A stretch of DNA of 64,000 bases. Origin: Shigella phage Moonfish. Position 1 is the stretch's first letter. Every line of letters starts with the position of its first letter. Shown in pieces: positions 3,457 through 55,610 of this stretch. Position numbers and translations under genes: made by a program. The notes beneath the pieces were generated by a model. That model was not told where the DNA came from and did not search any database. It saw only the letters and a list, made by a program, of their open reading frames with translations. The stretch lies in the sequence record PQ613263. One strand, given 5' to 3'.

Positions 3457-3468
3457 GAACCAAGAGGA

Positions 3469-4311: not shown

Positions 4312-4312
4312 T

Positions 4313-6955: not shown

Positions 6956-7412
6956 CAGGAGAATCCTCATGGATTTGTCATTCTTAACAGGCAACCAAAC
7001 CCCACAGCCAGCGGCTATGTCTTGGATGTCTAATAACAACCAGAACTTTAATACCCCAGCTATGAACTATAACCCAGGTGCTGCCATTGGTATGGGTGCA
7101 GATACAGGAGTAACCTCACCTACTTCTTTCTTGTCTGGTTCAGCTAATCAGTTGGGCATGAACGTACCTACCTTCCAACTAGGACTGGGTGCACTTGGTT
7201 CATTAGCTAATATCTATGGTGGTTTCCAGGCTAATAAGTTAGCCAAAGACCAGTTGAACTTTACTAAGAGTGTTACTAACACTAACCTGAATAACCAGAT
7301 TAAGTCTTATAACACTGCATTAGAAGACCGTGCTCGTAGTCGTGCTACAGCAGAGAACCGTGACCAGTCTTCAGCCGATGCTTACATTGCAGCTAATAAA
7401 CTAACTCGTTAA
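6948..7412 (+). CDS. small virion protein (N4 gp52-like by synteny)
   Basis: 154-aa ORF overlapping upstream stop; N/G/S-rich. Confidence 0.5.
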   Translation: MFNRRILMDLSFLTGNQTPQPAAMSWMSNNNQNFNTPAMNYNPGAAIGMGADTGVTSPTSFLSGSANQLGMNVPTFQLGLGALGSLANIYGGFQANKLAKDQLNFTKSVTNTNLNNQIKSYNTALEDRARSRATAENRDQSSADAYIAANKLTR

Positions 7413-7424
7413 TAGGAAACCATC

Positions 7425-9380
7425 ATGGCTCAAATTACATGGCGAAATGTTGACGCACCTAACTTCTCTGGAGTTGGTGACAGCATTCGCACATTTGGCA
7501 GCATGATTGGTAACGCTACCTCCGGCTTAAGTGATGCACTGGGTAATTTCCAGAACGCTGCTAAGCAGGAGGCTGGCAATGCCGTCATGATGAATGCTAT
7601 GCAATACCAAGACCCTACTGAGTATCGTAATGCTTTGGCATCTGGTGCACTGTTTCAGGGGGTTGACCCTTCTCTGGTAAACCAACGTACTCTCCAGAAT
7701 CTGGATGAGCGAGCAGGTACATTACTGGCTCAGCAAGGTCAACAGGGAACCAACGACTACAATGCTTATCGTTTTGGTCGTTTACAAGATACCAATACTG
7801 CATTGGATAATGCTTCCCCTGCTGTACGTTTACTGTCTGAGGCTTACCAGTCTGGGGACCAGAACCGTATTAATGCTGCACTGAGTCAGACTCGTGATGC
7901 ACTGTCTGCACTACCTGCCGACCAGCAACTTGAGATGATGAGTCGTCTACAGGGACAAGGTGGTCAGGCTATTAATCAAGCACAGAACCGTTTTGATTTG
8001 GGTGTGGCTCAACGTAATGATGCTGATAGTCAGGCAGCACAGGGTGTTATGGCCCAGATTACTCGTGGTGCAGAAAACCCCAATGATGCTCGTCTGTTGG
8101 CAGAAGCATATAGCAAGAATCTGTCTCCGGTTGCACAGGCACTTTTGCAGGGATTACTGGCTAATGCTTACCCAGGTGTATATGGTAATGGTGTAGGTGC
8201 TGCTTCTGCTCCGGGTACTGCTGGTACTCGTCAGGGTTCTCCTTATGATGTTACTTACCAGTTTGCTGGTACATCTACTCCTATTACTCAAATGAGTATT
8301 GGTGATGTAATTAAACACCAGGATGGTATGAAGTCTAACCAGGGTGCTTCACCTGTTGGGGCATTCCAGATTAACCAAGCTACCCTAAAAGACTTTGCTC
8401 CCAAAGTACTTGGTTCAGATTGGCAGAGCCAGCCACTTTCTCCTGAGAACCAGGATAAGATTGGTAAGGCTATCTTCGAACAGCGTAAGAATGGCAACCT
8501 TAAAGATACTTGGGCTGCACTTCCTAATGCTGGTGTCGGTGCTTATAAGGACATGTCATGGGAAGAGATTAAGCCAATCATTGCACAGGCTGAGGTTGGT
8601 GCTAATCCATTAGCTATGCGACAGACTGCACAAGGTAACCAAGCCGTATCTACTCTGGCTCAGGGTATGATTGGTACTCGTTCTATGCAGGACAATACCG
8701 GTAGCCTTAACACTGACTTCCTCGGTACTGTTACCGACAATACTCCAGTAGGTGAGATTGCTAACCGTTTGTTGGAAGGCGACTTTAAGGGTGCTGACCG
8801 AAACTGGGTACTTAACCGACTGACCGATATTTCTCAACGTGGGAATATGTCACCAGCTATGGCTGCTGCTGTTATGCAACGTTCACAGACTGGTGTTCCA
8901 GAAGGTTACATTAGTCGTGCTATTGATGCAGTTAACCCATTTATTACCAATGAAGCTGGTAATGGTATGCGTCTTAATGACCGTCAGGTAGACCAGCTAA
9001 TTGAGGGTGTACGTCGAGGTGAACCACTGGAAGGTAGTGTACGTAATCTTGGGCGTGCACAGGCAGCACAGAACATTCAGGCAGCACAGACTGCTTATGA
9101 TGCTGCTGTAGCTGCACTGACAAATACTCAGAACAAGATTAACACCGGACAAACTGGTCTTACTGCATTGTTACCTGCTCGACGGGAAGCTGTTACCAGA
9201 GCTGCTGCAATGCTCCAAGCTGCACAAGGGCAAGTTCAAGCAGACCCAGCTAACCTGGCTCCAAGAGGTTTCCAGTCACAGTCTAGTGTGGACCGGGCAC
9301 GAGCCAAGGAAGATGAAGAACGTGCTGCACGGTACTTACGTCAGGCGCAAGGTTTACCTGAGTATATGCAACCTCGCTAA
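7425..9380 (+). CDS. virion protein (N4 gp51-like by synteny), Q/A/N-rich; possible glycosidase-like central segment
   Basis: 651-aa ORF directly upstream of vRNAP; central segment GASPVGAFQINQATL weakly resembles transglycosylase motifs (unverified). Confidence 0.6.
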   Translation: MAQITWRNVDAPNFSGVGDSIRTFGSMIGNATSGLSDALGNFQNAAKQEAGNAVMMNAMQYQDPTEYRNALASGALFQGVDPSLVNQRTLQNLDERAGTLLAQQGQQGTNDYNAYRFGRLQDTNTALDNASPAVRLLSEAYQSGDQNRINAALSQTRDALSALPADQQLEMMSRLQGQGGQAINQAQNRFDLGVAQRNDADSQAAQGVMAQITRGAENPNDARLLAEAYSKNLSPVAQALLQGLLANAYPGVYGNGVGAASAPGTAGTRQGSPYDVTYQFAGTSTPITQMSIGDVIKHQDGMKSNQGASPVGAFQINQATLKDFAPKVLGSDWQSQPLSPENQDKIGKAIFEQRKNGNLKDTWAALPNAGVGAYKDMSWEEIKPIIAQAEVGANPLAMRQTAQGNQAVSTLAQGMIGTRSMQDNTGSLNTDFLGTVTDNTPVGEIANRLLEGDFKGADRNWVLNRLTDISQRGNMSPAMAAAVMQRSQTGVPEGYISRAIDAVNPFITNEAGNGMRLNDRQVDQLIEGVRRGEPLEGSVRNLGRAQAAQNIQAAQTAYDAAVAALTNTQNKINTGQTGLTALLPARREAVTRAAAMLQAAQGQVQADPANLAPRGFQSQSSVDRARAKEDEERAARYLRQAQGLPEYMQPR

Positions 9381-9398
9381 AATACTTCATACTAATAA

Positions 9399-9419
9399 AA
9401 GCCCTCCGGGGCTTTTTTC
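9399..9419 (+). terminator. intrinsic terminator
   Basis: AGCCC-tccg-GGGCT hairpin followed by TTTTTT. Confidence 0.6.
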
Positions 9420-9465
9420 TTACACTGGCTTACTGTAGAGTAGGCTTCCTATATACGATATAAGT

Positions 9466-12400
9466 TTGAACAGGAAACATGCTATGTCAACATTTGACCG
9501 TCTGGCAGGTTTCGCAGACAGCATCACTAATGCCAAGCAAGTCGATGTCTCTACTGCAACCTCTCAGAAGCAAGCTGCACAAGGGCAAAGCCCTTTCCAA
9601 TTAACCCCAGAGAATGCTTACAATCTCCAGACTGGACGTGTAGGTAATCTTGGAACTGGTGCATTCGAACCAGGTTCACTTCAGGCTGACTTCACTCAAG
9701 CCTCCCCATTAGAAATCATTAATAAGTACGGTAATGAGAAAGGTTTACAGATTCTTAATAGCCGAGCTAATGCTGCTGATGTTGTACGTCAGGACTTATC
9801 TAAACAGCGTACTAACGCAGAAGCATTTGGCGATACTCTTTCTGGTGTTGGTCTTGGTGTTGCTAATACCCTTGGGGGCATTGCTGCTCTTGGCACAGGT
9901 CTGGTCAATGATAATGCCGGGGCATCCATTGCTTCCGGGATGGATTGGCTGAATGAAGGTGTACGCAATCTCCAGTCTGATGCACTGAATGCTACCCGTA
10001 AAGTTGTTCAGAATCAGAACCAGATTTCTGCTCAAAAGAACCAGAAACTTTACGAGCAAGATATTAAGAATGGGGAGAACGATTTGGTTGCCTCCCTGTC
10101 TCGCATTGGTCGTGACGCTTTTGATTCTGTTGCTAATACACTTGATAATGGTATGGCTGCTACCGATGGACTGAGCGAAGGTGTTGGTTCCCTCTTTACT
10201 GCTGGTCCACTTATCCGTGGTGTGTCTGCATTAGGTAAAGTAATGGTTGGTGGTGATAAAGCTGTTAGGGGTATTACCTTAGCTGCTGAGTTGGGTTCAC
10301 GTCCTGCACAGGTTGCACTGTCTGCTGGTCGCGTTGCTGCACCTGCTATTGCAATCGGTGGCATGGAAGCAGGTGGTGCATACCAACAGACTGCATCTGA
10401 AATCATGAAGATGTCCCACCAAGAATTGGCAAGTAAGTCTCCTGTTTACCAACAACATATTGCTGATGGTTTACCTCCTGATGAAGCACGTCGTCAGACT
10501 GCATCTGAAACAGGTATCACTGCTGCTGGCTTAACTGCTCCAGTTGCTGCTGCTACTGGTCCACTGGTATCTCGCTTTGAACTTAACCCACTTAGAGTAG
10601 GTTCACTGGCTGGTGCTGGTTCTAATATGTTACGTGAGACTGTAGAAGAAGGTATTCAATCCGGCTTTGGTCAGTTCGCACAGAATACTGCAATCAAGGA
10701 AAATGTTGATGCATCCCGTGACACCCTCAAAGGGGTCGGTGAGCAAGCAGGGCTTGGTGCACTCTACGGCTTCGGTAGTGCTGGAGTTGCTCAAGCTCCT
10801 GGTGCAACTGTTAAAGCTGCTGGTGCTGCCACTGCTCCTGTTGTACGTACTACCCTGGCTGGTGCTTCTCTGGTTGGTAATGCATTAGCTAAAGCTGCTT
10901 CCCCTATTACTAACATTCTGGTTCAACGTGGTGAAGAAGTTGCTAAGCGTAATGAACAAGCATCCCCTGTAGCTGATGCTACGGTTAATGCTGCTGCACA
11001 AGAAGCTACTGCTCAGGCAGAACAAGCACAAGCGACTGTACAGGAAGCAGTAGATGCAATGGATATCTCTCCTGAGGAGAAGGCTGCTGCTACTCAGTAT
11101 GCTGCTGACTTAACTCAGGCAATGAACTTTGACCCTGTAGAATTGGAACAAGCTAACCCGGTAATTCGTGAAGCTGTTTCTGGTTCCACTAACCGTGTTG
11201 AAGCTATTCAGAAGATGGCTGACTTGGTTAATACAGCAGAAGACCCTAACGTTCAAATGGAAGCTGCTATCCAGATGTATGACAACATCATGTCTATGGA
11301 TAGCTTCATTAACCGTGACCCAGGTGCACTGGCTAATCTGGAACAGGGTTCACCTGCTGCTACAATCGTAGACCAGTTCTCTGGTCTGATGGCTAACGTA
11401 CAGAATACACCGAAGGTACTTCGTGCATTCCGTGCTATCCATTCCATGATTCAGGAACAGGCTGAAGCAGGTAAGCTGAAAGCTACTGAAGAAGCTAACC
11501 AAGCTCAAGCAAACAACATTGCCATGGCTGCTGACGTGTCTCCAGAAGTATTGGATGCAGATTCAGTGAACATGGTTCTGAAACATGCAAGTGAAGGTAA
11601 GATTACACTGGGGAATCGTCAACGTGCTGCCCTGCAATCTGCTGCTGCCTTGTTACAGGGTGCACGAGAGTTTGACGCTAAAGCAGAAGAACTAGGCTTA
11701 CGTCCTCAAGACATTGTTAGTAAACAAATTAAAACCGACGAGTCTCGTTCTAACGAAGGACAGTACTCTGCGTTGCAACATGCGAAACGCATTCGTTCTG
11801 CGTATAACTCTGGTAACTTCGATTTGGCTTACGCTTATCTGAGCGACTTTATGAAGTTCGCCCAGCACATGCAGAATAAGGTCGGAGCGTTGAATGAGCA
11901 TCTGATTTCTGGGAATGCGGATAAGAATAAGTCTGTTCATTATCAGGCTCTCTCGCCTTCCCGTGAATGGGTACGTAGTCGTACTGGCCTCGGTGTCAAT
12001 CCTTACGATACCAAGTCTGTTAAGTTTGCCCAGCAAGTAGGACTGGAGGCCAAAACCGTAGCTGATATTGCTAACGCACTTGCTACGGCTTACCCGGAGC
12101 TTAATGTTTCTCATGTGAAAGTTACCTCGTTGGATTCACGTCTGAACAAGCCAGCTGCCCAGGTAGTTAAAGAGTTCCGTCAAGGTGGTCTTGATGCCAC
12201 TCAGTCTCAACAGACCAATGAACCAGTGAATCAGGTTGATGAATCTCCTGCACCAGTGCAAGAGGACACTACTACTGTACAGCCTAAAGCTAAACCTGTG
12301 GTAGAAAATAAGACTGCTCCTACTAAGGAGACTAGCCCAAAAACAGAAGAAGTCTCTACTACCAAGTCTGAAACAGTAGAAGCTACCCTCACTAATGAGG

Positions 12401-15400
12401 ATACCATCCAGGAAGTAGCTGAAACCAAAACAGAAATGGAAACAGTGTTCCCCGTCTATAACAATGAAAAGACACCGAACCAGTTCCTGAAAGCATTTAC
12501 CCTACCAGAAGAACCTAAGTCTCGTACCATTGGTTCTGAGTCTCCGTTGACTGATGTTAAGCAAGCACTGTCTTCTGTTGCTCGCTTTGAAGCATTCACT
12601 CAAAAAGAAAATAACGCTCTCACAGGTGATGTGATTAAGCGTTATCAGGACTTAATGGACTTTGGTGAAACTCTGAAGACTACTTTGTCTGAACGACTGG
12701 CTAAGTTCCTTGCTAACAAAAATGTCGGTAAACGTTTTGCAGAAGGTACGGAAGCTAACCGTTGGGTAGGTGGCAAACTACTGAATATCGTTGAACAAGA
12801 TGGTGACACCTTTAAGTTCAATGACCAGTTGTTAGAGACTGCTGTGCTTGCTGGTCTGCAATGGCGACTAACTGCTACACAGAATGCTGCTGTTAAAGAC
12901 ATGAAAGACGTAGCTGCTATTACGGGTGTAGAAGCATCTCTGTTACCAGAAGGTATTCTGGCTGAGTTCGAGAATGCTCAGACTCTGGTTGAAGCTACTA
13001 ACTCACTGGCTCAGAAGATCGAATCCTACTGGGGTTTGAACCGTAACCCTAATGCACCACTGGGTTATACCAAGGGTATCCCAATGGCAATGGCTACAGA
13101 GATTCTGTCTTCCCTCATTGAGATGGGTGAAGTTAAAGAGTCTATGCTGGATGTGTCTGAGATTGACCCAGATTCCAATAAGACTGTCGGCCTGTATACC
13201 ATTGAGAAGCTGGATGACAATGATGCCATTAACAAATTCCCTACTGCTATTGAGGAAGCTGTCCTCTTAGAACCAGAAGAGAAAATGTATTTCGGTGACG
13301 ACATTCCTTCCGTGGCTCAAACTCAATTACGTAATCCTGCTGTTAAGAATACCCCGGAACAGAAAGCTGCTCTGAAAGTAGAACAGGCTACTGAGTTCCG
13401 TGTACACATGCCGATGGTTAACTTCTATGAAGCTATGGGCCGTGACAACATACTGGAATTGATGGGTGCTGGTTCTCTTAATCCTGAACTGTTGAACGTG
13501 AACACTGCTAAGTCACTGGAGGGTAAAAACCTGTCCGTGTCCATGGCATATGATTCCTTGTTTGGTGTAATCAATCAGATTAAGGAACAGGAGAATGGAC
13601 TAGATACACCTATCCACTATGGCTACAACATGACCCGTGTAGGTCGTATGCAGATGCTTGGTAAGAACAACCCACAGTCCAGCAAACTGGTACGTGAAGC
13701 AATCCTGCCAACCTTCTCTACTATTGACTTGAGTAATGAAAACAGCCAAACGTTCTCTGACTTCCAGTTAGGTCTGGCTCAGGCATTGGGTATCAAGGTT
13801 CATAATATGTCCCGTGAAGCTATGTCTGAAAAGCTGACCAAAGCTTTGGAAGGTAATCTGAAACCTGCTGTTGATATGATGGTTGAGTTTGATAAGTCTG
13901 GTCACTTACCTGCTGATGCAGTTGATATTCTGAAGACATCTCTGGGTGGCGATAAATCATTCGTAGCTCTCATGGCTCTTATGGAATATGCCCGTTACCT
14001 GAACAGTGATGACCGTGCCAACTTTAATACCCCTCTGTACGTTGAAGCCGATGGTGTAACCAACGGTCCGATTAACGCAATGGTATTAATGACTGGTGGT
14101 AAGTTCACTCCAGACTGGATTAAGAATACTGCTAAAGGTGGTTTGTTCTTCGGTAAAGCTGGTAAGACTATGAACGAACATCGTTCACAGGATGACAGTG
14201 TTGACTTGTATGAAGCATCCACCAATGGTCTGCAACAAGCATTGGGTGAATTGCGTAGTACTTACCGTAACAACGTTCCTGTTATGAGCCAGATGAACCA
14301 TCTCCAGAAGTTAATGGACCTGTTCATCAAAGACTTTAACTTGAATGAAGACGGTACTTTGGACCTGAAACGTGGTATCGCTAAAAACCCACTGACTATT
14401 ACCATCTATGGTTCTGGTGCACGTGGTATTGCTGGCAAGATGGTTAGTGCAATTACTGACACCATCTATGAACGCTTCAGTGACGTTCTGCAAGCACGTG
14501 CTGCTGACCCTAGCATTTCCCCAGCTATGGCGATGTTTGGTAAGGAGGCTGCGTCTGAGGCTGATGCTCAGGCTATGCTGGATACTTTCCTTACTTCTAT
14601 GGAAGCACTGACTGGTAATGTTCCAGTTATGCGTAAAGGCGAACTGTCTATTCAACAGGCAGAAGGTGCTCTGACTGGTAAGTTAGACCCTCAGAAGTTT
14701 ACTGTATCTGGTAATGCCTTGAAGAACCTACAAGAGAACATGCTTCACTTGTTCGTTGAACCAATGCGTACAGGTATCCGTAATACTGTTGGTGAAGGTC
14801 TGATGCACTCTACTGAGAACTTGCAGAAGGCTACTCAGATTCAGTCTCTGGTATTGCAGGATATGTTCCAACAAGCAGTACAGGCTAAACTGGCAGAAAA
14901 AGAAAATGACCCAACGTGGAAGAAGGGTGATTTCTTAACACAGAAAGAACTGAATGAAATTCAGGAATCATTATCTCCACTGGCTCCAATGATTGAGACT
15001 GGCGCACAGACTTTCTACATTGCTGGCAGTGAGAATACTGATGTTGCTAACCAAGTACTGGCTACCAACTTAGATGACCGTATGCGTGTGCCAATGAGCA
15101 TCTATGCCCCGTCACAAGCAGGTGTTGCTGGTATTCCATTTATGACCATCGGTACTGGTGATGGCATGATGATGCAGACCCTTTCTACTATGAAAGGTGC
15201 TCCGAAGAATACCCTGAAAATCTTTGATGGCATGAACATTGGTATCAATGACATCACTGATGCAAGCCGTAAAGCTAATGAGGCTGTATACACTTCCTGG
15301 CAGGGTAACCCTATCAAGAATGTTTATGACTCCTTCGCTAAGTTCATGAAGAATGTAGACTTCAGTAAACTGTCTGATGAAACCAAACAGGCTATCGCTA

Positions 15401-18400
15401 AGTCTGCTCTGGAATACGACCAGCGTGAAGGTGCTACTGATGACCTGTTACGTGTTGGTGCTGAACAGATTGAACGTAATCTGCGTAACATTGCTCTGGG
15501 TGTAGATATTCGCCATAAAGTAATGAACCAGGTACAGACTACTGTTGACCAGATGGCTGCTGTAGGTGCTCCTTATGTGAACAACGGTAAAATTTCTCTG
15601 GAAGGTCTGACTGTAGACCAGCAAGTAGCTAAGCTGAACGAACTGTTTGATGCTGAATTAATCAAGCGTCGTGATGCAGTACGTGCTGCTAAAGCAGAAC
15701 CAGTGAAAGAAGTACCGGCGATGGAGCAGGTTGGTCGTGTGCTGAAGTCTGGTGTACGTCTGCTGTCTAACACTGCTATTACTAAGCTGGCTAAAGAGAT
15801 GTCTCCTGAACAGCAAGCAGTATTGAAAGAAGTACAGAACTCCCTTGCTGCTAAAGACTACAAGGTTGTTTATGGTACTCCTGCTCAACTGGATGCTTAC
15901 GCTATTGAGAAGAACATTACTCGCCCAGCACCGGAAGATATTGAAGCTGCTGAAGCTGGTAATGCATACGGCTGGACTAACTTTGATGATAAGACCATCT
16001 ACTTAGTTACTCCTTCCTTAGAGACTCTGGTTCATGAATTGGTACATGCTTCTACTTTCGAATCTGTACTGGCTCACTATGAAGGTACTCCTAATGAAGC
16101 AGTCCAGAATATTGAAGACCTGATGAACCAGTTCCGTGCTCTGGATGTTAAGGATGAATCTCCGGCAGTACGTGAAGCATATGCTGATGCTCTCAATACC
16201 ATTAATGGTCACTTGTCTAATGGCTTTATTGAGCCAGCAATGGCTAAAGCTGCTGCACTTAATGAGTACATGGCATGGGGTTTAACCAACCGTGAACTGA
16301 TTGGTAAGCAGAAGAAAACCACTGCACTTAAGGCCATGGTTCAGTCTGTATATGAAGCAATTAAACGTCTGGTATTTGGGCGTAAGAAAGCTCCTGCTAA
16401 TGCAGATGATATGTTCTCTGGCTTACTGTTTAACTCCTCCGTAGTTATGCGTGGGCAAGCTCCTACTGCTGCTGTGGCTAAGGACACTACCTTGTTCCAT
16501 AGCAAAGCATATGGAGATAACACTCGTCTGGAAGAGTTAGGACAGACCTTCGATAAGCTGATTACTAACTACATTGGTTCAGAACCAGTACAGCAAGTAA
16601 TCCGTAAAGGTAAATTCTCTGATGCAGTAGTGAATGCAACAAAAGTAACTCGTGATGTTCAGGCTCATGGTTTCACTATGAATATGCAGGAACAGCGTCT
16701 CTTTACTAACATTGTTGCTGCACTGGCTACTGAAGCTGCTATTAGCCCAGCTGCTCTGGCTCGTGCACAGGAATACTATGCACACGTTACTAAGAACCTG
16801 ACCGTTGAAGCATTCATGGCTGACCCGGAAAGTACTAACCCTGCTGACCGTTACTACGCACAGCAGAAGTTCGATACCATCATGGGTGCTAACAATATTG
16901 AGTTTGATGCACAGGGTCGTTCTTCCTTACTGCCTACCTTCGTGGCTCTGGCAATGGTAAGTGAAGATGTACGTAACGTACTGGCTGGCATTCCTGTTAT
17001 GAAAGCAGATAAGCAATCTGGTAATACTGTTGATGCAATGCTGACTAACATTGGTACTGCTGCAATGGCTAGCCTGAATGCTCGTGTAGCAGGAGACACT
17101 AAAGCTACCAACGTGCAAGAAGGTATGGATGCACTGGCTCAGACAATCATGCAGACTAGCCTCAATGCACAGTCTTTCTACGATTCCGTTGCTACTCCTA
17201 GTGGTAATGCTATTGACCGTGCTAACCAGTATCTGGTGGACTCTATTGATGTACTGTCTACTCGTGCTTTAGATGGTGCACGTAATGTTGCAGCTAATAC
17301 CAAGAACCCATTGGTTAAAGGTGCTGCTCATGCTGCACAACTGGTAGCTGCTATTGCTACGGAGAAGAATGGTGCAATCGTAGCCGAAGGTGTTATGGCT
17401 GCAATGAACCAGGGTAAGGTATGGCAACCCTTCCATGACTTAGTTAATGACTTAACTGGTCGTACTAAGAGCAATGCTTCTGTATACGATTTAATTAAAG
17501 CAGTACGTGCACAGGTACAAGCTGACCGTCAGCAATTCCGTGAACATCTGCCTACCACTATCGCATCTAAGTTCAGCCGTAAGCTGACTAATGATGAGTG
17601 GAAAGCAATGCATACCGGCATGGGTAAAACTGATTTAGCTGTACTGCGTGACACTATGTCACTGGCTGAAATCCGTGACCTGTTGTCTGACCAGAAGATT
17701 GTTGACCGTGAAGTGAACAAGCTGGAAGCAGATTTGCAGAAACAAGCTGGGCGTAACTGGCCACTGATTAACCGTAAATCTAAGCAACTGGCTCAGTACA
17801 TGATTAACGGCACAGTTGGTAATAATCTGCTGCGTAATGCTACTGCAATCTCTCGTATGCTGGGCGAACGTCAGTCTGCACGTTCTACTGTAGATGTAGC
17901 TCAACTGGATAAACTTATTACCCTGTATGCACTGGAAGCAATGAGCAAAGCTGACCGTGAGCTGTTATCTTCCCTGGCTCAATCAGAAGTTGATGGAATG
18001 GATTTTGCTACTTCTTATCTGGTTGGACAGCGTAAAGATGAAATGGCTAAAGCTAAAACTGATAGCCGTGCAACATTGAACCAGTATAAAGGGCATATCC
18101 CTAGCGAGACTAAGCAGGGTGTTAACCTGATTGTTGCTGAAGATAGCCAGTTTGCTGATTTGATTGAGAAATCCTATGTACGTCTGGGTACTTATCAGGG
18201 TAGTTCTGCTAACCGTGGGCCAGCACGTAGCTACTACTTCGCACCAGTACAGGCACAGGCTCCATTCTCACAGGGCATCTTACAGAACGTTCGTAATACT
18301 GCTGGTGGTGTAGATCTTGGTACAGGCTTTACGATGGGTTCTATGGTAGCAGGTCGTATCACAGACAAGCCTTCAGTAGACCGTATCACTAAAGCTCTGG

Positions 18401-19836
18401 CCCGTGGTGAACGCGGTAATGAACCACTGCTGCCTGTATACGATGACAAAGGTAATGTAGTTGCATATGAGCAGTCTATAGACCCTAACATGCTGAAGCA
18501 CATTGAGGGTGAGAACCATCTTGCACGTGCAATCGGTGTATGGCGTGGTCGTCAGGTGGAAGAAGCTAAGGCTCAGCGTTTTAATGACATGCTGATAGAG
18601 AACCTGCATAGCATGTATGAGAACGACATTAAGATGTCTGCCTCCAATAAGTCCCAGTACGTGAACCTTCTTGGTTCTAAACTGGACCCAGTAACTGCTG
18701 ATGCTCTTAAGCTGATGAACAGTGAGACACGTCAGAAAGCAGAAAGCCTGTTTGGTAATGGTGAACTGTGGGTACGTCGTGACATGCTTAATGATGCTCT
18801 TGGTTATCGTGCAGCTTCTGTAGGTGATGCCTGGTCTGGTAATTCTCGTTGGTCCCCAGAAACGCTGGATACCTTCAAGAAAGCTATGTTAGGTGTGTTC
18901 GGCAATCGTGCTTATAAGTACACAATGGGAGGTGAGAACCTGGTACAGAACTTAGTTAAAGAAGCTAAGACCCTGATTGTAATTAAGTCAGTAGTCGTAC
19001 CTGCTGTTAACTTCTTGGCTAACCTTTACCAGATGGTTGCTCGTGGTGTACCAGTTAAGAACATTGCTAAGAGCATTCCACAGAAAACTGCTGAGATTAA
19101 CCAGTACCTGAAATCTCGTCTGCGTCAGGTAGATGCAGAAGCAGAATTACGTGCAGCTACCAACCCGAACCAGATTCGTAAGCTTAAGGCTGAGATTCAA
19201 TCCATCTCTGATAGCCATAAGCGTATGAGTATCTGGCCTCTGCTGGAAGCTGGTGAGTTCTCTTCAATTGCAGATGCTGGTATTGGGCGTGATGACATCC
19301 TGATTACCGAAGGTAAACTTCAGGAATATATGGATAAACTGGCTGATAAGTTGCCTAAGTCTGTACGTACTGCTGGGCGGTATGCACTCATCACTAAGGA
19401 TACTGCTCTTTTCCAGGGTATCCAGAAAACCGTTGAGTACTCTGACTTTATCGCTAAAGCAATCATCTATGATGAATTGACTCAGCGTAAAGGCAAGACT
19501 CGTGAAGAAGCACTTGGACGTGTAACTGAAGAGTTTGTTAACTATGACCGTCTGCCTGGTCGCTTCCGTGGATATATGGAAAGCGTTGGTTTAATGTGGT
19601 TCTACAACTTTAAGATTCGTTCTGCAAAAGTTGCAGTATCCATGATTCGTAATAACCCAGTACATGCAGCAATGGCTATGTTGGCTCCAGCTCCTACCAT
19701 GTTTGGTAACGTTGGTCTGCCTATTCAGGACAACGTATTTAGTATTGCTGCTAAGGGTGGGCTGGATTCTTCTTGGGGCTTTGGTCAGGGGCTGCGTGCT
19801 CACAACCTGAACCCTTGGTTGAACCTGGTAAACTAA
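9466..19836 (+). CDS. virion-encapsidated giant RNA polymerase (vRNAP, N4 gp50-like)
   Basis: Single uninterrupted 3456-aa ORF (10.4 kb) at the end of the virion gene module; a protein of this size in this position is the hallmark of N4-like phages. All antisense ORFs inside it are short. Confidence 0.9.
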   Translation: MNRKHAMSTFDRLAGFADSITNAKQVDVSTATSQKQAAQGQSPFQLTPENAYNLQTGRVGNLGTGAFEPGSLQADFTQASPLEIINKYGNEKGLQILNSRANAADVVRQDLSKQRTNAEAFGDTLSGVGLGVANTLGGIAALGTGLVNDNAGASIASGMDWLNEGVRNLQSDALNATRKVVQNQNQISAQKNQKLYEQDIKNGENDLVASLSRIGRDAFDSVANTLDNGMAATDGLSEGVGSLFTAGPLIRGVSALGKVMVGGDKAVRGITLAAELGSRPAQVALSAGRVAAPAIAIGGMEAGGAYQQTASEIMKMSHQELASKSPVYQQHIADGLPPDEARRQTASETGITAAGLTAPVAAATGPLVSRFELNPLRVGSLAGAGSNMLRETVEEGIQSGFGQFAQNTAIKENVDASRDTLKGVGEQAGLGALYGFGSAGVAQAPGATVKAAGAATAPVVRTTLAGASLVGNALAKAASPITNILVQRGEEVAKRNEQASPVADATVNAAAQEATAQAEQAQATVQEAVDAMDISPEEKAAATQYAADLTQAMNFDPVELEQANPVIREAVSGSTNRVEAIQKMADLVNTAEDPNVQMEAAIQMYDNIMSMDSFINRDPGALANLEQGSPAATIVDQFSGLMANVQNTPKVLRAFRAIHSMIQEQAEAGKLKATEEANQAQANNIAMAADVSPEVLDADSVNMVLKHASEGKITLGNRQRAALQSAAALLQGAREFDAKAEELGLRPQDIVSKQIKTDESRSNEGQYSALQHAKRIRSAYNSGNFDLAYAYLSDFMKFAQHMQNKVGALNEHLISGNADKNKSVHYQALSPSREWVRSRTGLGVNPYDTKSVKFAQQVGLEAKTVADIANALATAYPELNVSHVKVTSLDSRLNKPAAQVVKEFRQGGLDATQSQQTNEPVNQVDESPAPVQEDTTTVQPKAKPVVENKTAPTKETSPKTEEVSTTKSETVEATLTNEDTIQEVAETKTEMETVFPVYNNEKTPNQFLKAFTLPEEPKSRTIGSESPLTDVKQALSSVARFEAFTQKENNALTGDVIKRYQDLMDFGETLKTTLSERLAKFLANKNVGKRFAEGTEANRWVGGKLLNIVEQDGDTFKFNDQLLETAVLAGLQWRLTATQNAAVKDMKDVAAITGVEASLLPEGILAEFENAQTLVEATNSLAQKIESYWGLNRNPNAPLGYTKGIPMAMATEILSSLIEMGEVKESMLDVSEIDPDSNKTVGLYTIEKLDDNDAINKFPTAIEEAVLLEPEEKMYFGDDIPSVAQTQLRNPAVKNTPEQKAALKVEQATEFRVHMPMVNFYEAMGRDNILELMGAGSLNPELLNVNTAKSLEGKNLSVSMAYDSLFGVINQIKEQENGLDTPIHYGYNMTRVGRMQMLGKNNPQSSKLVREAILPTFSTIDLSNENSQTFSDFQLGLAQALGIKVHNMSREAMSEKLTKALEGNLKPAVDMMVEFDKSGHLPADAVDILKTSLGGDKSFVALMALMEYARYLNSDDRANFNTPLYVEADGVTNGPINAMVLMTGGKFTPDWIKNTAKGGLFFGKAGKTMNEHRSQDDSVDLYEASTNGLQQALGELRSTYRNNVPVMSQMNHLQKLMDLFIKDFNLNEDGTLDLKRGIAKNPLTITIYGSGARGIAGKMVSAITDTIYERFSDVLQARAADPSISPAMAMFGKEAASEADAQAMLDTFLTSMEALTGNVPVMRKGELSIQQAEGALTGKLDPQKFTVSGNALKNLQENMLHLFVEPMRTGIRNTVGEGLMHSTENLQKATQIQSLVLQDMFQQAVQAKLAEKENDPTWKKGDFLTQKELNEIQESLSPLAPMIETGAQTFYIAGSENTDVANQVLATNLDDRMRVPMSIYAPSQAGVAGIPFMTIGTGDGMMMQTLSTMKGAPKNTLKIFDGMNIGINDITDASRKANEAVYTSWQGNPIKNVYDSFAKFMKNVDFSKLSDETKQAIAKSALEYDQREGATDDLLRVGAEQIERNLRNIALGVDIRHKVMNQVQTTVDQMAAVGAPYVNNGKISLEGLTVDQQVAKLNELFDAELIKRRDAVRAAKAEPVKEVPAMEQVGRVLKSGVRLLSNTAITKLAKEMSPEQQAVLKEVQNSLAAKDYKVVYGTPAQLDAYAIEKNITRPAPEDIEAAEAGNAYGWTNFDDKTIYLVTPSLETLVHELVHASTFESVLAHYEGTPNEAVQNIEDLMNQFRALDVKDESPAVREAYADALNTINGHLSNGFIEPAMAKAAALNEYMAWGLTNRELIGKQKKTTALKAMVQSVYEAIKRLVFGRKKAPANADDMFSGLLFNSSVVMRGQAPTAAVAKDTTLFHSKAYGDNTRLEELGQTFDKLITNYIGSEPVQQVIRKGKFSDAVVNATKVTRDVQAHGFTMNMQEQRLFTNIVAALATEAAISPAALARAQEYYAHVTKNLTVEAFMADPESTNPADRYYAQQKFDTIMGANNIEFDAQGRSSLLPTFVALAMVSEDVRNVLAGIPVMKADKQSGNTVDAMLTNIGTAAMASLNARVAGDTKATNVQEGMDALAQTIMQTSLNAQSFYDSVATPSGNAIDRANQYLVDSIDVLSTRALDGARNVAANTKNPLVKGAAHAAQLVAAIATEKNGAIVAEGVMAAMNQGKVWQPFHDLVNDLTGRTKSNASVYDLIKAVRAQVQADRQQFREHLPTTIASKFSRKLTNDEWKAMHTGMGKTDLAVLRDTMSLAEIRDLLSDQKIVDREVNKLEADLQKQAGRNWPLINRKSKQLAQYMINGTVGNNLLRNATAISRMLGERQSARSTVDVAQLDKLITLYALEAMSKADRELLSSLAQSEVDGMDFATSYLVGQRKDEMAKAKTDSRATLNQYKGHIPSETKQGVNLIVAEDSQFADLIEKSYVRLGTYQGSSANRGPARSYYFAPVQAQAPFSQGILQNVRNTAGGVDLGTGFTMGSMVAGRITDKPSVDRITKALARGERGNEPLLPVYDDKGNVVAYEQSIDPNMLKHIEGENHLARAIGVWRGRQVEEAKAQRFNDMLIENLHSMYENDIKMSASNKSQYVNLLGSKLDPVTADALKLMNSETRQKAESLFGNGELWVRRDMLNDALGYRAASVGDAWSGNSRWSPETLDTFKKAMLGVFGNRAYKYTMGGENLVQNLVKEAKTLIVIKSVVVPAVNFLANLYQMVARGVPVKNIAKSIPQKTAEINQYLKSRLRQVDAEAELRAATNPNQIRKLKAEIQSISDSHKRMSIWPLLEAGEFSSIADAGIGRDDILITEGKLQEYMDKLADKLPKSVRTAGRYALITKDTALFQGIQKTVEYSDFIAKAIIYDELTQRKGKTREEALGRVTEEFVNYDRLPGRFRGYMESVGLMWFYNFKIRSAKVAVSMIRNNPVHAAMAMLAPAPTMFGNVGLPIQDNVFSIAAKGGLDSSWGFGQGLRAHNLNPWLNLVN

Positions 19837-19846
19837 AATAAAAAAA

Positions 19847-19864
19847 GCCCCTCATTAGAGGGGC
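19847..19864. terminator. bidirectional intrinsic terminator between convergent vRNAP and minus-strand genes
   Basis: GCCCCTC-atta-GAGGGGC hairpin flanked by A-run upstream and T-run downstream. Confidence 0.65.
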
Positions 19865-19871
19865 TTTACTT

Positions 19872-21494: not shown

Positions 21495-21654
21495 TAGTAG
21501 CTTTTAATAGATAGCTGTATTTGAGCATTATAGTCTGCTCATACTCACACTCTTCTGTCGAAGAATATGTTTACAATACCTAGAGTGCCGGACTGTCTTA
21601 CCGGCATTGTCTTTAGAGTGCTAAGCAATCAGGACTATGTTCTCTATTAATGGG

Positions 21655-21728
21655 TGCCCACTACTGGATTTGAACCAGTGACTTTCCGATTATTAGTCGG
21701 TTGCTTTCCCCGTCTAAGCTAAGCGGGC
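21655..21728 (-). tRNA. tRNA gene (manual fold); anticodon loop CUAAUAA, anticodon AAU if numbering is canonical (Ile-type; A34 is unusual)
   Basis: Folded by hand on minus strand: acceptor GCCCGCT/AGTGGGC (one G.U), D-stem GCTT/AAGC with GG in D-loop, anticodon stem CCGA/UCGG, perfect T-arm ACTGG-TTCAAAT-CCAGT, discriminator A. Confidence 0.6.
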
Positions 21729-21929
21729 ATTGATAGGTGAGTCCTGCCAGGCTTTAACTGGCTCCTTCTTCGCAATCCTTACATACCCCTACATAATTAT
21801 TGCGTTAAGCTTTTTTGTTTAAGTTTAAGTGAAGGCGTTCTTGCTGACTCATAATTAGGTGAGGCGTTTGACGAATGACTAGTTCGTTACTACCTCGTTG
21901 TTTGCCATAAGTACCTGGCGACTTCAGGT

Positions 21930-23512: not shown

Positions 23513-24067
23513 TTACGCCTTTAATAATTTAATGAGGTTCTGGAAAGATGGGAGATTTACACCAGCGTGGATTGCACCGATTGCATCAGCCAAGTGCTCA
23601 TTCTTATTTAGAAGTTTGCCTTTCTTATCAGTGAGCCAGTTGGCTTCAGGATAAATGGCATGAGCAGCACGAATCATCGTGTCTTTGGATGCAGTCTTAT
23701 CACCGACCAGTGCAAGTTTGTTTTCAATTGGGGATACTTCAAAGATTGGACAACCCAATGCACGAAATGCACCGATTAATCCTACGCATACACCATAGGA
23801 CTTCATACCGTTAGCGGACTGAGAGCCTACTGGTACTTCTACGAATACTGCTTTAGCAGACCGTAACCATTCCTCACAACCAAGAAACAAATCATGAGAG
23901 GCTTGTATATCTTTGGAGTTGGTTCGAACTTGTTTGTTGTGGTCAACTTCAGTTTGAACCAGTTTAAGTTCGACCTGCTCGAAGACGCCGGACTCAATGT
24001 CCAGCATCCCACGAGCTAAACCCCAATTGCGGAGACTAATATCTGCACCAACAATTGGGATTTTCAT
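23513..24067 (-). CDS. RuvC-like Holliday junction resolvase
   Basis: 184 aa; N-terminal IVGADISLRNWGLA resembles the RuvC ILGIDPG motif; C-terminal HLADAIGAIHAG resembles the RuvC D-A-x-D-A-x-A-I signature. Confidence 0.6.
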   Translation of the reverse strand: MKIPIVGADISLRNWGLARGMLDIESGVFEQVELKLVQTEVDHNKQVRTNSKDIQASHDLFLGCEEWLRSAKAVFVEVPVGSQSANGMKSYGVCVGLIGAFRALGCPIFEVSPIENKLALVGDKTASKDTMIRAAHAIYPEANWLTDKKGKLLNKNEHLADAIGAIHAGVNLPSFQNLIKLLKA

Positions 24068-24864
24068 TATTTCTTACCGAACAGTGATTTACCACCTGCC
24101 GGAGCAGGACCAGTGTTAGCACCCGGTTTAGGAGGCAAGCCACCTTTACCATTACCACCAGCAGAACCCTTGGTCTTATCACGGGTTTTACCTTTGTTCT
24201 TTTCCAACCATGCTGTATGGAATACAGCCAGTTCTGGGGTCAGTTCTTTCTCAGCCTTCTCTGCTTCCTGAGCCTCGATGACTGTGACCAGCAGTTCCGG
24301 GTGAAACACTTTCTGAATCTCGTTTACTTCACGAGTTTCACCAGAGTCAACGTAACCGTTGTCACCTTTAACCTGCTTAGCTTCCAGAACCTTTTCCAGA
24401 GCAAAGGTAACAGTCTGACCTACCAGTTCAACTGGAACCATGACAGACTTGTTGGTTTCTGCTTTCAGGTCAAAGTCATAGACTTTAACAATCTTCTCTT
24501 CGAAGTCAGCATCCGGCAGTTCATTACCAGTAGCCATCAGCATCATGTCATTAATGACAGTGTAACCAGGCAGGAAGTATTCTTTACCGTTCTTCTCGTA
24601 AGTCGGCTTGTTGCCTTTAGCATTACCAGAAGTGAAGTACACCTGGGCACGGAACTCACCAGCATCATTTCCATCGGAACCTTTCAGGTTTTCGATGATT
24701 AACTGCATCCAGTCTGCACCGGAGTCAGCTTTACCTACGTAAGCTACTTTTACAGTACCGGTATAGATATCAGTTTCTTTGGCACCGAAGCCACCACCAC
24801 CAAGGGAGTCTTTTGCAGCTTCAACGTTTTTGGTTTTTTCTTTCAAGTTACCGAACAGTGACAT
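24067..24864 (-). CDS. single-stranded DNA-binding protein (N4-type SSB candidate)
   Basis: 265-aa ORF with Gly-rich basic C-terminus, located between resolvase and ATPase genes; size and position match N4 SSB (inference, not motif-based). Confidence 0.5.
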   Translation of the reverse strand: MSLFGNLKEKTKNVEAAKDSLGGGGFGAKETDIYTGTVKVAYVGKADSGADWMQLIIENLKGSDGNDAGEFRAQVYFTSGNAKGNKPTYEKNGKEYFLPGYTVINDMMLMATGNELPDADFEEKIVKVYDFDLKAETNKSVMVPVELVGQTVTFALEKVLEAKQVKGDNGYVDSGETREVNEIQKVFHPELLVTVIEAQEAEKAEKELTPELAVFHTAWLEKNKGKTRDKTKGSAGGNGKGGLPPKPGANTGPAPAGGKSLFGKK

Positions 24865-45033: not shown

Positions 45034-45036
45034 AGA

Positions 45037-47828: not shown

Positions 47829-47861
47829 TTAACTTAATGCATAATCCGTTTCAAGAATGTC
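47829..47861 (-). CDS. RNAP II large subunit, 3' mini-exon encoding the C-terminal foot (D)ILETDYALS
   Basis: Closely resembles the T7 RNAP C-terminus RDILESDFAFA; exact 3' junction inferred. Confidence 0.55.
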   Translation of the reverse strand, partial: DILETDYALS

Positions 47862-48988
47862 CTGCCAGAGGCTGTCATCCAGCTTACCCGCAGAGAACTC
47901 TTGTCCCAGTACCTGAGATAGGATGAAGCCCAGCAAGTCACTCTTAGCAATGTCAGATAGAATCTGATTGTACTGACGACGTAGGTCATTACCATAGTTA
48001 GGATGACAACGAAAACCATTAGTTAAACGAGTCGTTAGCTCGCCCTTACCTTCCATGATTAACATGAAAGCCATATGTAGCATCTGCTTGTTTACGAGCA
48101 AGCATTGCCTCCTCAAGTGTGTCGTACGTACCCAGACCGATCTGTTTGCGATTGACTGTGATGTGTGCCTGAAATCTACCAGAAGGCAGTATTCTCACAC
48201 CGTTCACTTTGCTTGAAGTATTACTAGATAAACTCATATTCATCTGGTTCTGTCTGCTGGTTACATTTCTCAAATTAGACCAACGATTGTCGTTTCTAGT
48301 ATGATTGATGTGGTCCACCTGGTTAGGTGTTTCCCCAGTTTCCATTATCCAGATTATTCGATGTAGTAAGTACTCTTTGCGGCCCAGGCTAACGGATAGA
48401 TACCCTTCTTTGTGAGGATACCCCACAATTGTTCCGGCTAACCCACTGGCAGAGTCATAACGATGAGTCACTAGCCCACTATCCCTGTCATACCTTAAAA
48501 CCTTCTGCAAAGATTCTTGGGTAATATTACCCAAGTTTATTATTAGGTTTTTACAGGTAGAGCATAGATGACCTATTGGACTCTTTCTAGCATCATAGAA
48601 GTTACAAACAAACTCATTAGAGCATTGCTTGCAACTACAGATAGCTGTGTACTTACCAGTTTTACGTAATATTTGAGAGTTATCTAACATATGGATTCCT
48701 TAGTAATTTTGCATACAATTTCAGATTGTATCCTAACCAAGGAAGTAAGTCTCCAATTTTCACTGGAGTATCGGACTATATCATCACCCACTAATCAGTG
48801 GGGCAAGGCGCTTGGGTGGTCACTTGACTCACCTACTCTACTCACATACGAAATGCTTTCGATAGTCTCTGAACCTTCCCTCATAGAGGGCTTGGCTGCT
48901 GATTGGCATATCCATAGGACTTAGCTTTCCAGCAATTCACCTTGTTTTCGACACGGATTACTCCGTGAAGGATCATTTATGTTTAATC
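47862..48988 (-). mobile_element. probable group I intron (~1.1 kb) in RNAP II large-subunit gene, carrying an HNH-AP2 endonuclease ORF
   Basis: Upstream ORF stops right after ...VLTVHD, 9-10 codons short of a T7-like C-terminus that is encoded 1.1 kb downstream in frame-compatible position; splice after caU with intron ending caG satisfies U/G group I rules. Confidence 0.55.
48046..48690 (-). CDS. HNH endonuclease with AP2 DNA-binding domain (intron-encoded)
   Basis: 214 aa; own AAGGAA RBS; HNH_3-like GYLSVSL...HRIIWIMETGETPNQVDHINHTRNDNRWSNLR; C-terminal AP2-like GVRILPSGRFQAHI...GTYDTLEEA. Confidence 0.8.
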   Translation of the reverse strand: MLDNSQILRKTGKYTAICSCKQCSNEFVCNFYDARKSPIGHLCSTCKNLIINLGNITQESLQKVLRYDRDSGLVTHRYDSASGLAGTIVGYPHKEGYLSVSLGRKEYLLHRIIWIMETGETPNQVDHINHTRNDNRWSNLRNVTSRQNQMNMSLSSNTSSKVNGVRILPSGRFQAHITVNRKQIGLGTYDTLEEAMLARKQADATYGFHVNHGR

Positions 48989-50014
48989 ATGTACAGTCAA
49001 TACAGGGAATGGCTTCTTAGGTAAAGTGTCCAGCATGTCTGCTACTACCTGACGGTCAACCATAGCAATAGTGCCTGGGTCGAGATAGTCGATAATAGAC
49101 ATAGATAAGAATCCAGACTTCTCGTAGTGTTCCCACAAGGTCTGTACCATTTCCATGTTACCTTCAATCTCCCCATACTCTGCTGGGCCTGTGTCGCAGA
49201 GTTCACGAACAGCAGCAACCAGGTTAGCATCGAAGTTACAACGACGCAGCATCTCGCGTACCACCATCCCATCAATAGAGTGGGTGATGTTAGCAGAGAG
49301 CATACGAGTCTTCTCTTCAGTACCCTGAACCATGCGGGTAATGTCGAATGGTTTACCTAAGAAGTTAACAGTCTGTACTTCTGGAACCATGACCTTAATG
49401 ACGGCATGGAAGTTGTCAGACAATACCCATACGTAACGGTTAGCATCCGGGTTACCACATTGCAGTAAGAACTTGTTCAATGCCCAAGGCCCACTAGCAA
49501 CAGTTTCCATTACATTCTCAAAAGTCTTGAGACGGATACCCTCACCGAATACTTCTTTAGGCTTAGCTTCTGAACCGTAGAATGCAGTCATAACTGCCTG
49601 CTTAGTGTCACTACGCTTAATACGAGATGCTTCACCAAGGATGTCCAACATCTTGTGATAGATAACTGTATAAGCATCACGACGTAATGGCTTACCGTTT
49701 TCACCCATGTAGTTAACTACGTTACACAGTTCAGCAGCAGAACGGTCACCAGTCAGGCAAGCCAGTAACTGCAAGCCTGATGATGTAGCATCCAGAGCTA
49801 CGGCATAGCCAATAGGCTTACCGGCTTTCATATCTTTCCATGCGTTTACACCTGCATAGAACAATGCGGATTCTTCAGCTTCATCTACCAGATTAAGCAG
49901 GTTAGCTTCGTTTTCATCGAACCAGCTAATACGTTCATCCCATGTTTTCTTATCCAGACCCATGTTATTCGCAATATCAATCTTTAAATATTCTTTCGCT
50001 GTGAAAAGCTGCAT
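48989..50014 (-). CDS. phage RNAP II large subunit (N4 gp16-like, T7-like catalytic half), 5' exon
   Basis: LDATSSGLQLLA (T7 motif A FDGSCSGIQHFSA), KQAVMTAFYGS (motif B), ITHSIDG (T7 H784 region), RELCDTG (motif C). Confidence 0.8.
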
Positions 50015-51417: not shown

Positions 51418-51450
51418 CGCATATTCTCCTAAATGTTATTAATAACCAAA

Positions 51451-51465
51451 AGCTGCGGAGCAGCT
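51451..51465 (-). promoter_or_regulatory. conserved GGA-triloop hairpin, candidate vRNAP-type early promoter
   Basis: AGCTGC-GGA-GCAGCT (6-bp stem, 3-nt loop) ~40 nt upstream of the RNAP II small-subunit start; identical 17-mer recurs at 54508-54524. Confidence 0.45.
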
Positions 51466-54011: not shown

Positions 54012-54398
54012 TTAGAAAGTCAGTTTACGAGCATATTTATTCTCATCGGCAGGAATAGATTCTTCCTGAGCCTTCACGCGTCTTAACTGAACTTGCAGGT
54101 TAATGATACCTTCTTCACCTGGTTCCAGGTTCTGAGCATATTCGATTAACTGTTCCAGCAAATCGTTCTGTGCACAACGCATAGCACGGAAGTCAGCATT
54201 GCTGCTATTAGTAGGCAGTGCTTCCTGAGTATCCAGTGGAATACCAGTAGGCAGAGAGATGAATTTCTCATCATCAGAGCCTTCATTAGCAACATAACCA
54301 ATGTTCAGCCAGAACTGAGCCTTAGGCTTAGCAGCTTTAGTTTCAGCAGTGGTAGCAGCAACGTTAGATTGACCGAAAGTGAATTTTTGAATAGACAT
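54012..54398 (-). CDS. hypothetical early protein
   Basis: Likely start at MSIQKF (GGAG RBS 8 nt upstream); the longer track ORF (to 54497) would begin inside the promoter-proximal leader. Confidence 0.5.
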
Positions 54399-54508
54399 TT
54401 TGTACTCTCCAGATAAATGATTGTTTGATTGATGGGTTTGTCTGTCGGTGACTAAACCCAAGAAAAGACTTAGGATTTCAATGATTAGTGGATGCATTTA
54501 CGTCCTCA

Positions 54509-54523
54509 AGCTGCGGAGCAGCT
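54509..54523 (-). promoter_or_regulatory. conserved GGA-triloop hairpin, candidate vRNAP-type early promoter
   Basis: AGCTGC-GGA-GCAGCT, identical to the element at 51451-51465 including one flanking A on each side. Confidence 0.45.
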
Positions 54524-54731: not shown

Positions 54732-54785
54732 TTTATTACTCCAGTAGTTATAGGGATACCCAATAGAAGCGGAGCTTCTTGGTTT

Positions 54786-55232: not shown

Positions 55233-55553
55233 CTATTTAGTCAGGATGTCGATTACTTTTGAATATTCTGCGTTATAGATACGAGCGTTCTCTGAATCTT
55301 TGCAGAATTCTTCGATACTTTTCTTACGCATAGTCTCGTTCATAGCTGTTTCTTCAGCTAATTTGTTTACGAATGTATGCATTTCTAATTTAGTACGGAT
55401 GGCTTGTTTCTCTGCCATAGTAGATACATATGAATTAAGCATACCTACTGCTTTAGTAGCTGTGCCGAATGTATCTGCAACAGTAGTAGCAGCTGAGTTA
55501 ACAGTACCCAGTAAAGTTCCTGCGGTCATACGTACAGTAGCGGTAGTAGTCAT
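55233..55553 (-). CDS. hypothetical early protein
   Basis: 106-aa ORF downstream of the hairpin at 55596-55610. Confidence 0.5.
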   Translation of the reverse strand: MTTTATVRMTAGTLLGTVNSAATTVADTFGTATKAVGMLNSYVSTMAEKQAIRTKLEMHTFVNKLAEETAMNETMRKKSIEEFCKDSENARIYNAEYSKVIDILTK

Positions 55554-55595
55554 GATGATAGCTCCAATAGTTGATGATAGGACGACATGTCCATA

Positions 55596-55610
55596 ACATG
55601 CGGAGCATGT
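55596..55610 (-). promoter_or_regulatory. GGA-triloop hairpin, candidate vRNAP-type early promoter
   Basis: ACATGC-GGA-GCATGT (6-bp stem, 3-nt loop, same C-GGA-G core) ~45 nt upstream of the 55553 start. Confidence 0.45.

Follow-up and report, generated by a model that had tools for sequence, protein, structure and literature searches.

The stretch of DNA analysed here, 64,000 nucleotides in total and called the window below, carries at 9484-19836 on the + strand a gene which, with a probability of about 97% as judged from its sequence, encodes a Gamaleyavirus virion RNA polymerase (vRNAP), a direct orthologue of N4 gp50 working as N4 vRNAP does. All function discussed here is assigned by orthology to N4, the mechanism of which is taken from PMC4496689, PMC13434306 and PMC13492108. 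The earlier note had read the giant open reading frame (ORF) as a virion RNA polymerase, and the matches to PHROG 2206, the PDB chains and BLASTP (66% identity) bear this out by identifying a full-length orthologue of N4 vRNAP. The claim that the phage is N4-like and belongs to Schitoviridae also holds, on the vRNAP orthology, the N4 synteny and the DNA identity to Gamaleyavirus. The size of the ORF, however, is not diagnostic of Schitoviridae by itself, as had been supposed; it is homology that makes the assignment. The features are collected in Table 1.

Table 1. Features of the window, their positions (nucleotides, or amino acids of vRNAP where marked aa or given as residues), strand, and evidence or sequence
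Feature	Position	Strand	Evidence or sequence
Segment compared with phi G17	1-9465		95.3% identity, 100% of query covered
gp52 homologue, ejection protein, about 147-154 aa	6948..7412	+	PHROG 2646; synteny
gp51 homologue, ejection protein, 651 aa	7425..9380	+	PHROG 6126, 1020 bits; N4/PhAPEC7 synteny
GC-rich hairpin and T-run between gp51 homologue and vRNAP	9397..9419	+	AAAAGCCCTCCGGGGCTTTTTT; direct reading
Segment compared with phi G17	9466-19836		93.8% identity, 100% of query covered
vRNAP CDS, predicted N4 gp50 orthologue, 3450 aa and stop	9484..19836	+	PHROG 2206, PDB, BLASTP
N-terminal domain (NTD), aa 1-900	9484..12183	+	61% identity to N4 aa 1-906
Low-complexity T/E/V/K/Q/P-rich linker, aa ~901-994	12184..12465	+	composition; between NTD and Pol domain
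Polymerase (Pol, mini-vRNAP) domain, aa 995-2068	12466..15687	+	Pfam, PDB, motif alignment
-11 element	K1079, R1084, W1094		
Pfam vRNAP_dom_2	aa 1292-1407		
TxxGR	T1384-R1388		MTRVGRMQMLGK
Pfam vRNAP_plug PF21624, autoinhibitory plug	aa 1424-1505		E = 2.7e-29
Motif A	E1521, D1523		TPLYVEADGVTNGPINAM
Pfam N4_RNAP_helical	aa 1583-1799		
Motif B	R1630, K1634, Y1642		LKRGIAKNPLTITIYGSGARGIAGK
Specificity loop	D1865, R1868		LATNLDDRMRVPMSIY
Pfam vRNAP_dom	aa 1881-2025		
Motif C	D1915		KGAPKNTLKIFDGMNIG
C-terminal domain (CTD), aa 2069-3450	15688..19833	+	69% identity to N4 aa 2104-3500
Palindromic terminator, 10-bp stem, between convergent vRNAP and gp49-homologue genes	19844..19867	.	palindrome
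Segment compared with phi G17	20001-45000		92.9% identity, 89% of query covered
N4 SSB (gp45) homologue	24067..24864	-	PHROG 743, 300 bits; synteny
Segment compared with phi G17	45001-64000		90.6% identity, 69% of query covered
RNAPII large subunit, N4 gp16 homologue	47829..50014	-	PHROG 2051, PF00940; exon 1 48985-50014, exon 2 47829-48016
Group I intron, 968 nt	48017..48984	-	Rfam RF00028, 91 bits, match 48751-48994
RNAPII small subunit, N4 gp15 homologue, 272 aa	50599..51417	-	PHROG 2166, 385 bits
Putative P3 homologue, directly upstream of RNAPII small-subunit gene	51447..51464	-	model; N4 site 4551 before gp15
gp2 homologue (RNAPII cofactor in N4)	54012..54497	-	PHROG 4099; gp2-like at this position in PhAPEC7, G7C
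Putative P2 homologue, directly upstream of gp2 homologue	54505..54522	-	model; promoter also in G7C, PhAPEC7
Putative extra hairpin promoter, GAAGC-TCC-GCTTC TATT G	54761..54778	-	model, fold
gp1 homologue (RNAPII cofactor in N4)	55233..55553	-	PHROG 5020; position as gp1 of N4, G7C, PhAPEC7
Putative P1 homologue, CATGC-TCC-GCATG TTAT G, upstream of gp1 homologue	55592..55609	-	model; sites in N4, G7C, PhAPEC7

The ORF listing of the whole window contains at 9466..19836 (+) one uninterrupted frame of 10.4 kb, which corresponds to 3456 aa when read from a TTG codon. The giant frame described in the earlier note is accordingly present, and its position and strand stand, but the length of 3456 aa does not, because the TTG at 9466 is merely the first permitted start after the preceding stop. 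An in-frame ATG is situated at 9484, six codons past the TTG, and is preceded by a Shine-Dalgarno-like AGGAAA at 9472-9477; moreover, the annotated CDS start of the PhAPEC7 orthologue coincides with this ATG, 18 nt into the megablast match. For these two reasons the true start is almost certainly ATG 9484 and the product has 3450 aa, not 3456, with codons at 9484-19833 and the stop codon at 19834-19836. No ORF of at least 150 aa overlapping the vRNAP frame was found in the ORF listing of the window. By a rough estimate, the chance of about 3450 open codons in DNA of 45% GC is (61/64)^3456, or about e^-166, so that a chance origin of the frame is impossible.

Over aa 25-3449 the product scores 4126 bits with PHROG 2206, “virion RNA polymerase”, over aa 1-3449 it scores 5011 bits with the full-length N4 vRNAP chains in the PDB (3500 aa; 11GP, 9PNQ, 9PNR and others), and the mini-vRNAP crystal chains (2PO4, 3C2P, 3Q0A) map to aa 995-2068 with about 1697 bits. 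When N4 gp50, as translated from NC_008720, was compared by BLASTP, the identity was 66% over 3503 columns with 2% gaps and amounted to 61% in the NTD, 70-72% in the Pol domain and 69% in the CTD. The two proteins have the NTD-linker-Pol-CTD layout in common, but the vRNAP of the window is 50 aa shorter than N4 gp50 and most of the difference lies in the linker, where the alignment gaps cluster; in N4 the low-complexity linker comprises residues 907-1006 (PMC13434306). The N4 CTD is needed for encapsidation and autoinhibits the Pol domain (PMC13492108, PMC13434306). Four N4-vRNAP domains of Pfam were matched with E values of 1e-29 to 1e-101, all far above cut-off, while the Pfam search gave no domain in the NTD, nor in the NTD and CTD together (about 2300 aa). 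The earlier note had made its reading depend on an RNAP-like domain in the central region, and this region contains the four Pfam domains and the mini-vRNAP match at aa 995-2068.

The motifs of the polymerase were compared after alignment to the N4 Pol domain and are numbered below as in mini-vRNAP. The motif blocks are the same as in N4 or altered solely at flanking positions. The residues K114, R119, W129, K437, R440, E557, D559 and Y612 are all kept in comparison with N4, and so are R666, K670, Y678, K849, K850, D901, R904 and D951. Among the residues checked, one alone differs, namely, K267 of the β-intercalating hairpin (promoter junction), which is N in the window, the adjacent K268 being kept. 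D559 and D951, which are presumably the catalytic aspartates of N4 mini-vRNAP, correspond to D1523 and D1915 in the window. In the N4 enzyme K437, R440 and E557 hold the initiating nucleotide (PMC4496689), and the promoter contacts are made by K114, R119, W129, K849, K850, D901 and R904 (PMC4496689, PMC13492108).

A profile search of the central region, proposed earlier as a check, gave a divided answer. The generic T7-like profile PF00940, run on the isolated Pol domain, stayed at 13.9 bits, short of the cut-off of 22 (E = 0.024), whereas the N4-vRNAP Pfam domains and the mini-vRNAP chains were positive, so a check of T7-like profiles with PF00940 alone would have looked negative. The sub-threshold score is in line with the published account of mini-vRNAP, which places it, highly diverged, in the family of T7-like RNAPs (PMC4496689). 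RNAP identity is settled by N4-specific models and solved structures; the proposed membership in the T7-like superfamily rests on the solved N4 structures and on motif conservation, not on PF00940. The vRNAP of the window has the TxxGR motif and motifs A, B and C in common with single-subunit RNAPs of the T7-like type (PF00940), that is, T7 RNAP and the mitochondrial POLRMT, and the right-hand fold known for this superfamily from the literature is expected in it, the solved N4 Pol domain being 70-72% identical. The vRNAP differs from these enzymes in carrying about 2300 extra residues, and, according to the N4 literature, the vRNAP type reads a hairpin on a single-stranded template, not duplex DNA, is carried in the virion and depends on host SSB and gyrase.

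Within the late/virion block of the + strand (250-19836) the vRNAP gene comes last, which agrees with the position at the distal end of the virion module noted before. Gene orientation and GC skew both flip at about 20 kb, and the genes from about 20.3 kb lie on the − strand. The order gp57, gp56 (capsid), gp55, gp54, gp53, gp52, gp51, gp50 leading to the vRNAP gene is syntenic with N4 and PhAPEC7. In N4 two proteins, gp51 and gp52, leave the virion along with vRNAP, and their operon has been described (PMC13434306). The hairpin at 9397-9419, which a simple terminator scan missed, resembles an intrinsic terminator or attenuator and may lessen read-through into the vRNAP gene, the product of which is needed in about four copies per virion. 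In the annotation of PhAPEC7 a putative terminator is entered at the same position as this hairpin, and terminators on both strands are entered at a site matching the palindrome at 19844-19867.

In N4 the non-template heptamer GCTYCGC is common to P1 (93-99), P2 (562-568) and the site before gp15 (4551-4557), and it is flanked by inverted repeats, with a +1 G eight nt after the −8 position. The promoters of the window were found after direct reading of N4 P1 and P2 and a subsequent search with this heptamer; a generic search for inverted repeats from 6-nt seeds did not pick them out. Taken by itself, the heptamer shows no enrichment (5 in the window, 5.0 expected). The full model, NNN-GCTYCGC-NNN'(complementary)-N4-G, gave four matches with starts at 55609, 54778, 54522 and 51464, all on the − (early-gene) strand at 51.4-55.6 kb, whereas 500 shuffles used as a control averaged 0.042 matches and never exceeded 1. 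Significance is reached by the full model alone, with its stem extension and +1 G, and the candidate hairpin promoters mentioned in the earlier note are recovered as four N4-type sites against an expectation of 0.042. A heptamer match on the + strand at 60367 was rejected, as it fails both the stem-extension and the +1 G criteria.

The template strands of the four sites fold into a 6-bp stem with a GGA loop. Three of the sites lie before gp1, gp2 and gp15, where N4 has P1, P2 and P3 and where G7C and PhAPEC7 have their sites. For the fourth, at 54761-54778, neither G7C nor PhAPEC7 shows an equivalent at this place, and a 67-aa ORF (54528-54731, −) lies downstream of it. The window differs from N4 in having four hairpin promoters instead of three; in addition, all four have a TCC loop (GGA in the template), while N4 P1 has TTC.

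The two-subunit RNAP II that the earlier note had placed elsewhere in the window was found as homologues of gp15 and gp16, the large-subunit gene being interrupted by an intron. The gp16-homologue ORF starts at 50014 and stops just after “...LTVHD”, and the remaining 62 gp16 codons (FRCHPNYGND...YALS) are located at 48014-47829. Since gp16 stops early, its remainder lies downstream and a group I intron lies between, RNAPII is regarded as a two-subunit enzyme with one of its genes split by an intron. According to an alignment with the intron-less G7C gene, the splice sites follow the T at 48985 and the G at 48017. The predicted splicing restores CAT GAT TGT TTT (HDCF) and gives a 405-aa product, which is the length of G7C gp16; the insertion point is one nucleotide past the motif C Asp codon of gp16. 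The intron holds an HNH homing-endonuclease ORF (48046-48690) with HNH_3 and AP2 domains. The phage ZQ2 has this intron in common with the window at 94% identity, the pieces being annotated in ZQ2 as separate genes. Furthermore, in both the window and G7C a free-standing endonuclease gene is located between the two RNAPII subunit genes.

As for the relatives of the phage, megablast of the vRNAP gene gave 84 phage records, of which 58 cover at least 80% of the query, with phi G17 and PhAPEC5 (93.8%) and PhAPEC7 (93.5%) as the best DNA matches; all the best matches are Gamaleyavirus (Schitoviridae, Enquatrovirinae). The nearest known vRNAPs are those of Gamaleyavirus phages such as PhAPEC7, phi G17 and G7C (gp50). 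At the protein level, vRNAP is 97.0% identical to the annotated vRNAP of PhAPEC7, YP_009056186, with an equal length of 3450 aa and zero gaps; the aa substitutions of about 3% are evenly spread over all domains, and the genes and terminators flanking vRNAP are the same in PhAPEC7. No identical copy of the protein was found by exact-sequence look-up in the collections searched. The window has 90-95% DNA identity to Gamaleyavirus genomes, and the N4 core set, namely, vRNAP, gp15/gp16, gp1, gp2, N4 SSB and the gp56 capsid protein, is present in N4 synteny. Arithmetic from the four segments of Table 1 gives an intergenomic similarity of about 80% to phi G17, the nearest deposited relative. The ICTV genus criterion is a nucleotide similarity of at least 70% to the members of the genus. 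With about 80% to phi G17, the phage falls within the genus and below the 95% species line. Judged by these similarities, the phage is a member of the genus Gamaleyavirus (Schitoviridae, Enquatrovirinae) and probably a new species of it. A fuller picture, that of an undescribed Gamaleyavirus species which has gained a fourth promoter driving the 67-aa gene, which bears a mobile intron after the gp16 motif C Asp and the vRNAP of which is functionally as in N4, is put forward at even odds as a whole.

Two other explanations of the giant frame deserve consideration. It could encode a structural or ejection protein, of an internal-core or tape-measure-like kind, which has lost polymerase activity, early transcription then being left to the host polymerase. 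Giant virion proteins without polymerase function occur in other phages, and the sub-threshold PF00940 score and the lack of Pfam domains in the terminal domains would fit such a protein. However, all the catalytic motif blocks and both aspartates match those of the active N4 enzyme, the cognate hairpin promoters are still present where they would be expected, and the identity of 97% to PhAPEC7 without indels argues against relaxed constraint, which makes an inactive protein very improbable.

Still further from probable, indeed hardly credible, is that the long frame is an artefact of assembly or annotation, in which several genes were fused through frameshifts, or that it arose by chance. What can be said for an artefact is that, compared with N4 and G7C and their physical genome ends, the window is circularly permuted, so the sequence comes from an assembly and not from an end-defined genome. 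Nevertheless, dozens of phages sequenced independently have a 3450-aa orthologue with which the frame is collinear without gaps (58 records at 80% coverage or more), and the frame also aligns with the experimentally characterised N4 protein of 3500 aa; these full-length alignments already refute an artefact. An active, N4-type vRNAP is thus the preferred reading.

On this preferred reading, and by orthology to N4, the vRNAP gene at the end of the late operon would be transcribed late, and a few copies of the 3450-aa protein would be packaged into the capsid via the CTD. At infection vRNAP would be expelled through the tail along with the gp51 and gp52 ejection proteins, the loosely linked NTD, linker, Pol domain and CTD presumably letting it thread a channel of about 30-35 Å. 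The enzyme would be held autoinhibited by the CTD and by the plug and the loop of motif B until the Pol domain engages a DNA hairpin. This hairpin, with its 6-bp stem and its GGA loop on the template strand, is expected to be extruded from supercoiled phage DNA and stabilised by SSB, and transcription would start at the template C eight nt downstream of -8G. The four promoters of the window would then drive the early genes, including gp1, gp2 and those for RNAPII gp15 and gp16, and RNAPII with its cofactors would run the middle phase. Finally, the N4 SSB homologue would switch the host RNA polymerase to the late genes; in N4, the SSB activates late transcription by host RNA polymerase (PMC4496689, PMC13434306, PMC13492108).

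The vRNAP gene of this phage is an ordinary, intact, textbook hallmark gene of a well-sampled genus, and its description has little consequence beyond correct annotation. The 66%-identical sequence could aid conservation mapping onto the 2026 full-length N4 vRNAP structures, although dozens of equally close vRNAP sequences are already public. For the phage itself, the identification of vRNAP fixes its placement in Schitoviridae and Gamaleyavirus and accounts for what else the window contains, that is, a three-polymerase cascade, the hairpin promoters and the ejection-protein operon.

The gene for the giant virion RNA polymerase (vRNAP), the orthologue of N4 gp50, departs from N4 at only one of the promoter-contact residues checked, that is, asparagine (codon 13177-13179, plus strand) replaces K267 of the β-intercalating hairpin, a lysine which in N4 acts together with K268 to melt the 7-bp P2 stem at its base. 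In the neighbouring N4 gp49 homologue, Pfam detects a Tad2-like domain (Thoeris anti-defence 2 / DUF2829; E = 6e-22), and the counterpart of the single tRNA gene is annotated as tRNA-Xle in PhAPEC7.

The large-subunit gene of the two-subunit middle polymerase (RNAPII) is interrupted by a group I intron with a homing endonuclease ORF inside it, and the insertion point lies 1 nt past the motif C Asp codon. Predicted splicing regains the HDCF motif and gives a protein of 405 aa. A full-length counterpart of this intron was found in only one of the phage records searched, ZQ2 (94% identity), where the same element is annotated as separate genes, without an intron label. In addition, a free-standing endonuclease gene sits between both RNAPII subunit genes, and G7C (ST15.1) likewise has an endonuclease gene at this place. 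The family A DNA polymerase is also encoded in two ORFs (29409-32694, minus strand), and at the corresponding position an intron is annotated in PhAPEC7; Rfam at its gathering threshold gave no group I intron at this split gene.

Features of the Moonfish genome (all on the minus strand)
Feature	Coordinates	Remarks
N4 gp49 homologue, 171 aa	20311-20826	convergent with vRNAP
tRNA gene	21651-21729	ARAGORN tRNA-Ile, anticodon AAT; Rfam tRNA, 63.8 bits
DNA polymerase ORF, 307 aa	29409-30332	
HNH_3 endonuclease ORF	30396-30929	between DNA polymerase ORFs
DNA polymerase ORF, 563 aa	31003-32694	
Group I intron, RNAPII large subunit	48017-48984	Rfam, 91 bits
HNH/AP2 homing endonuclease ORF	48046-48690	inside the intron
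Free-standing endonuclease gene, 193 aa	50016-50597	endonuclease VII PHROG, NUMOD1 domain
67-aa ORF	54528-54731	GGAG ribosome-binding site
Fourth N4-type hairpin promoter (predicted)	54761-54778	

Besides P1, P2 and P3, the hairpin promoters that vRNAP would read, a fourth one is predicted immediately 5′ of the 67-aa ORF, whereas G7C and PhAPEC7 have three forward hairpin promoters each, none matching this position. The record of phi G17 has the same permutation as the window, which reads through the end junction. The stretch upstream of P1 (~55,700, minus strand), ctaccccacctt...acacgttacac, matches N4 over the opening ~100 nt of that genome, and in N4, G7C and PhAPEC7 the left end is ~145 nt away from the start of gp1; the physical left end of the Moonfish genome is therefore probably near 55.7 kb.
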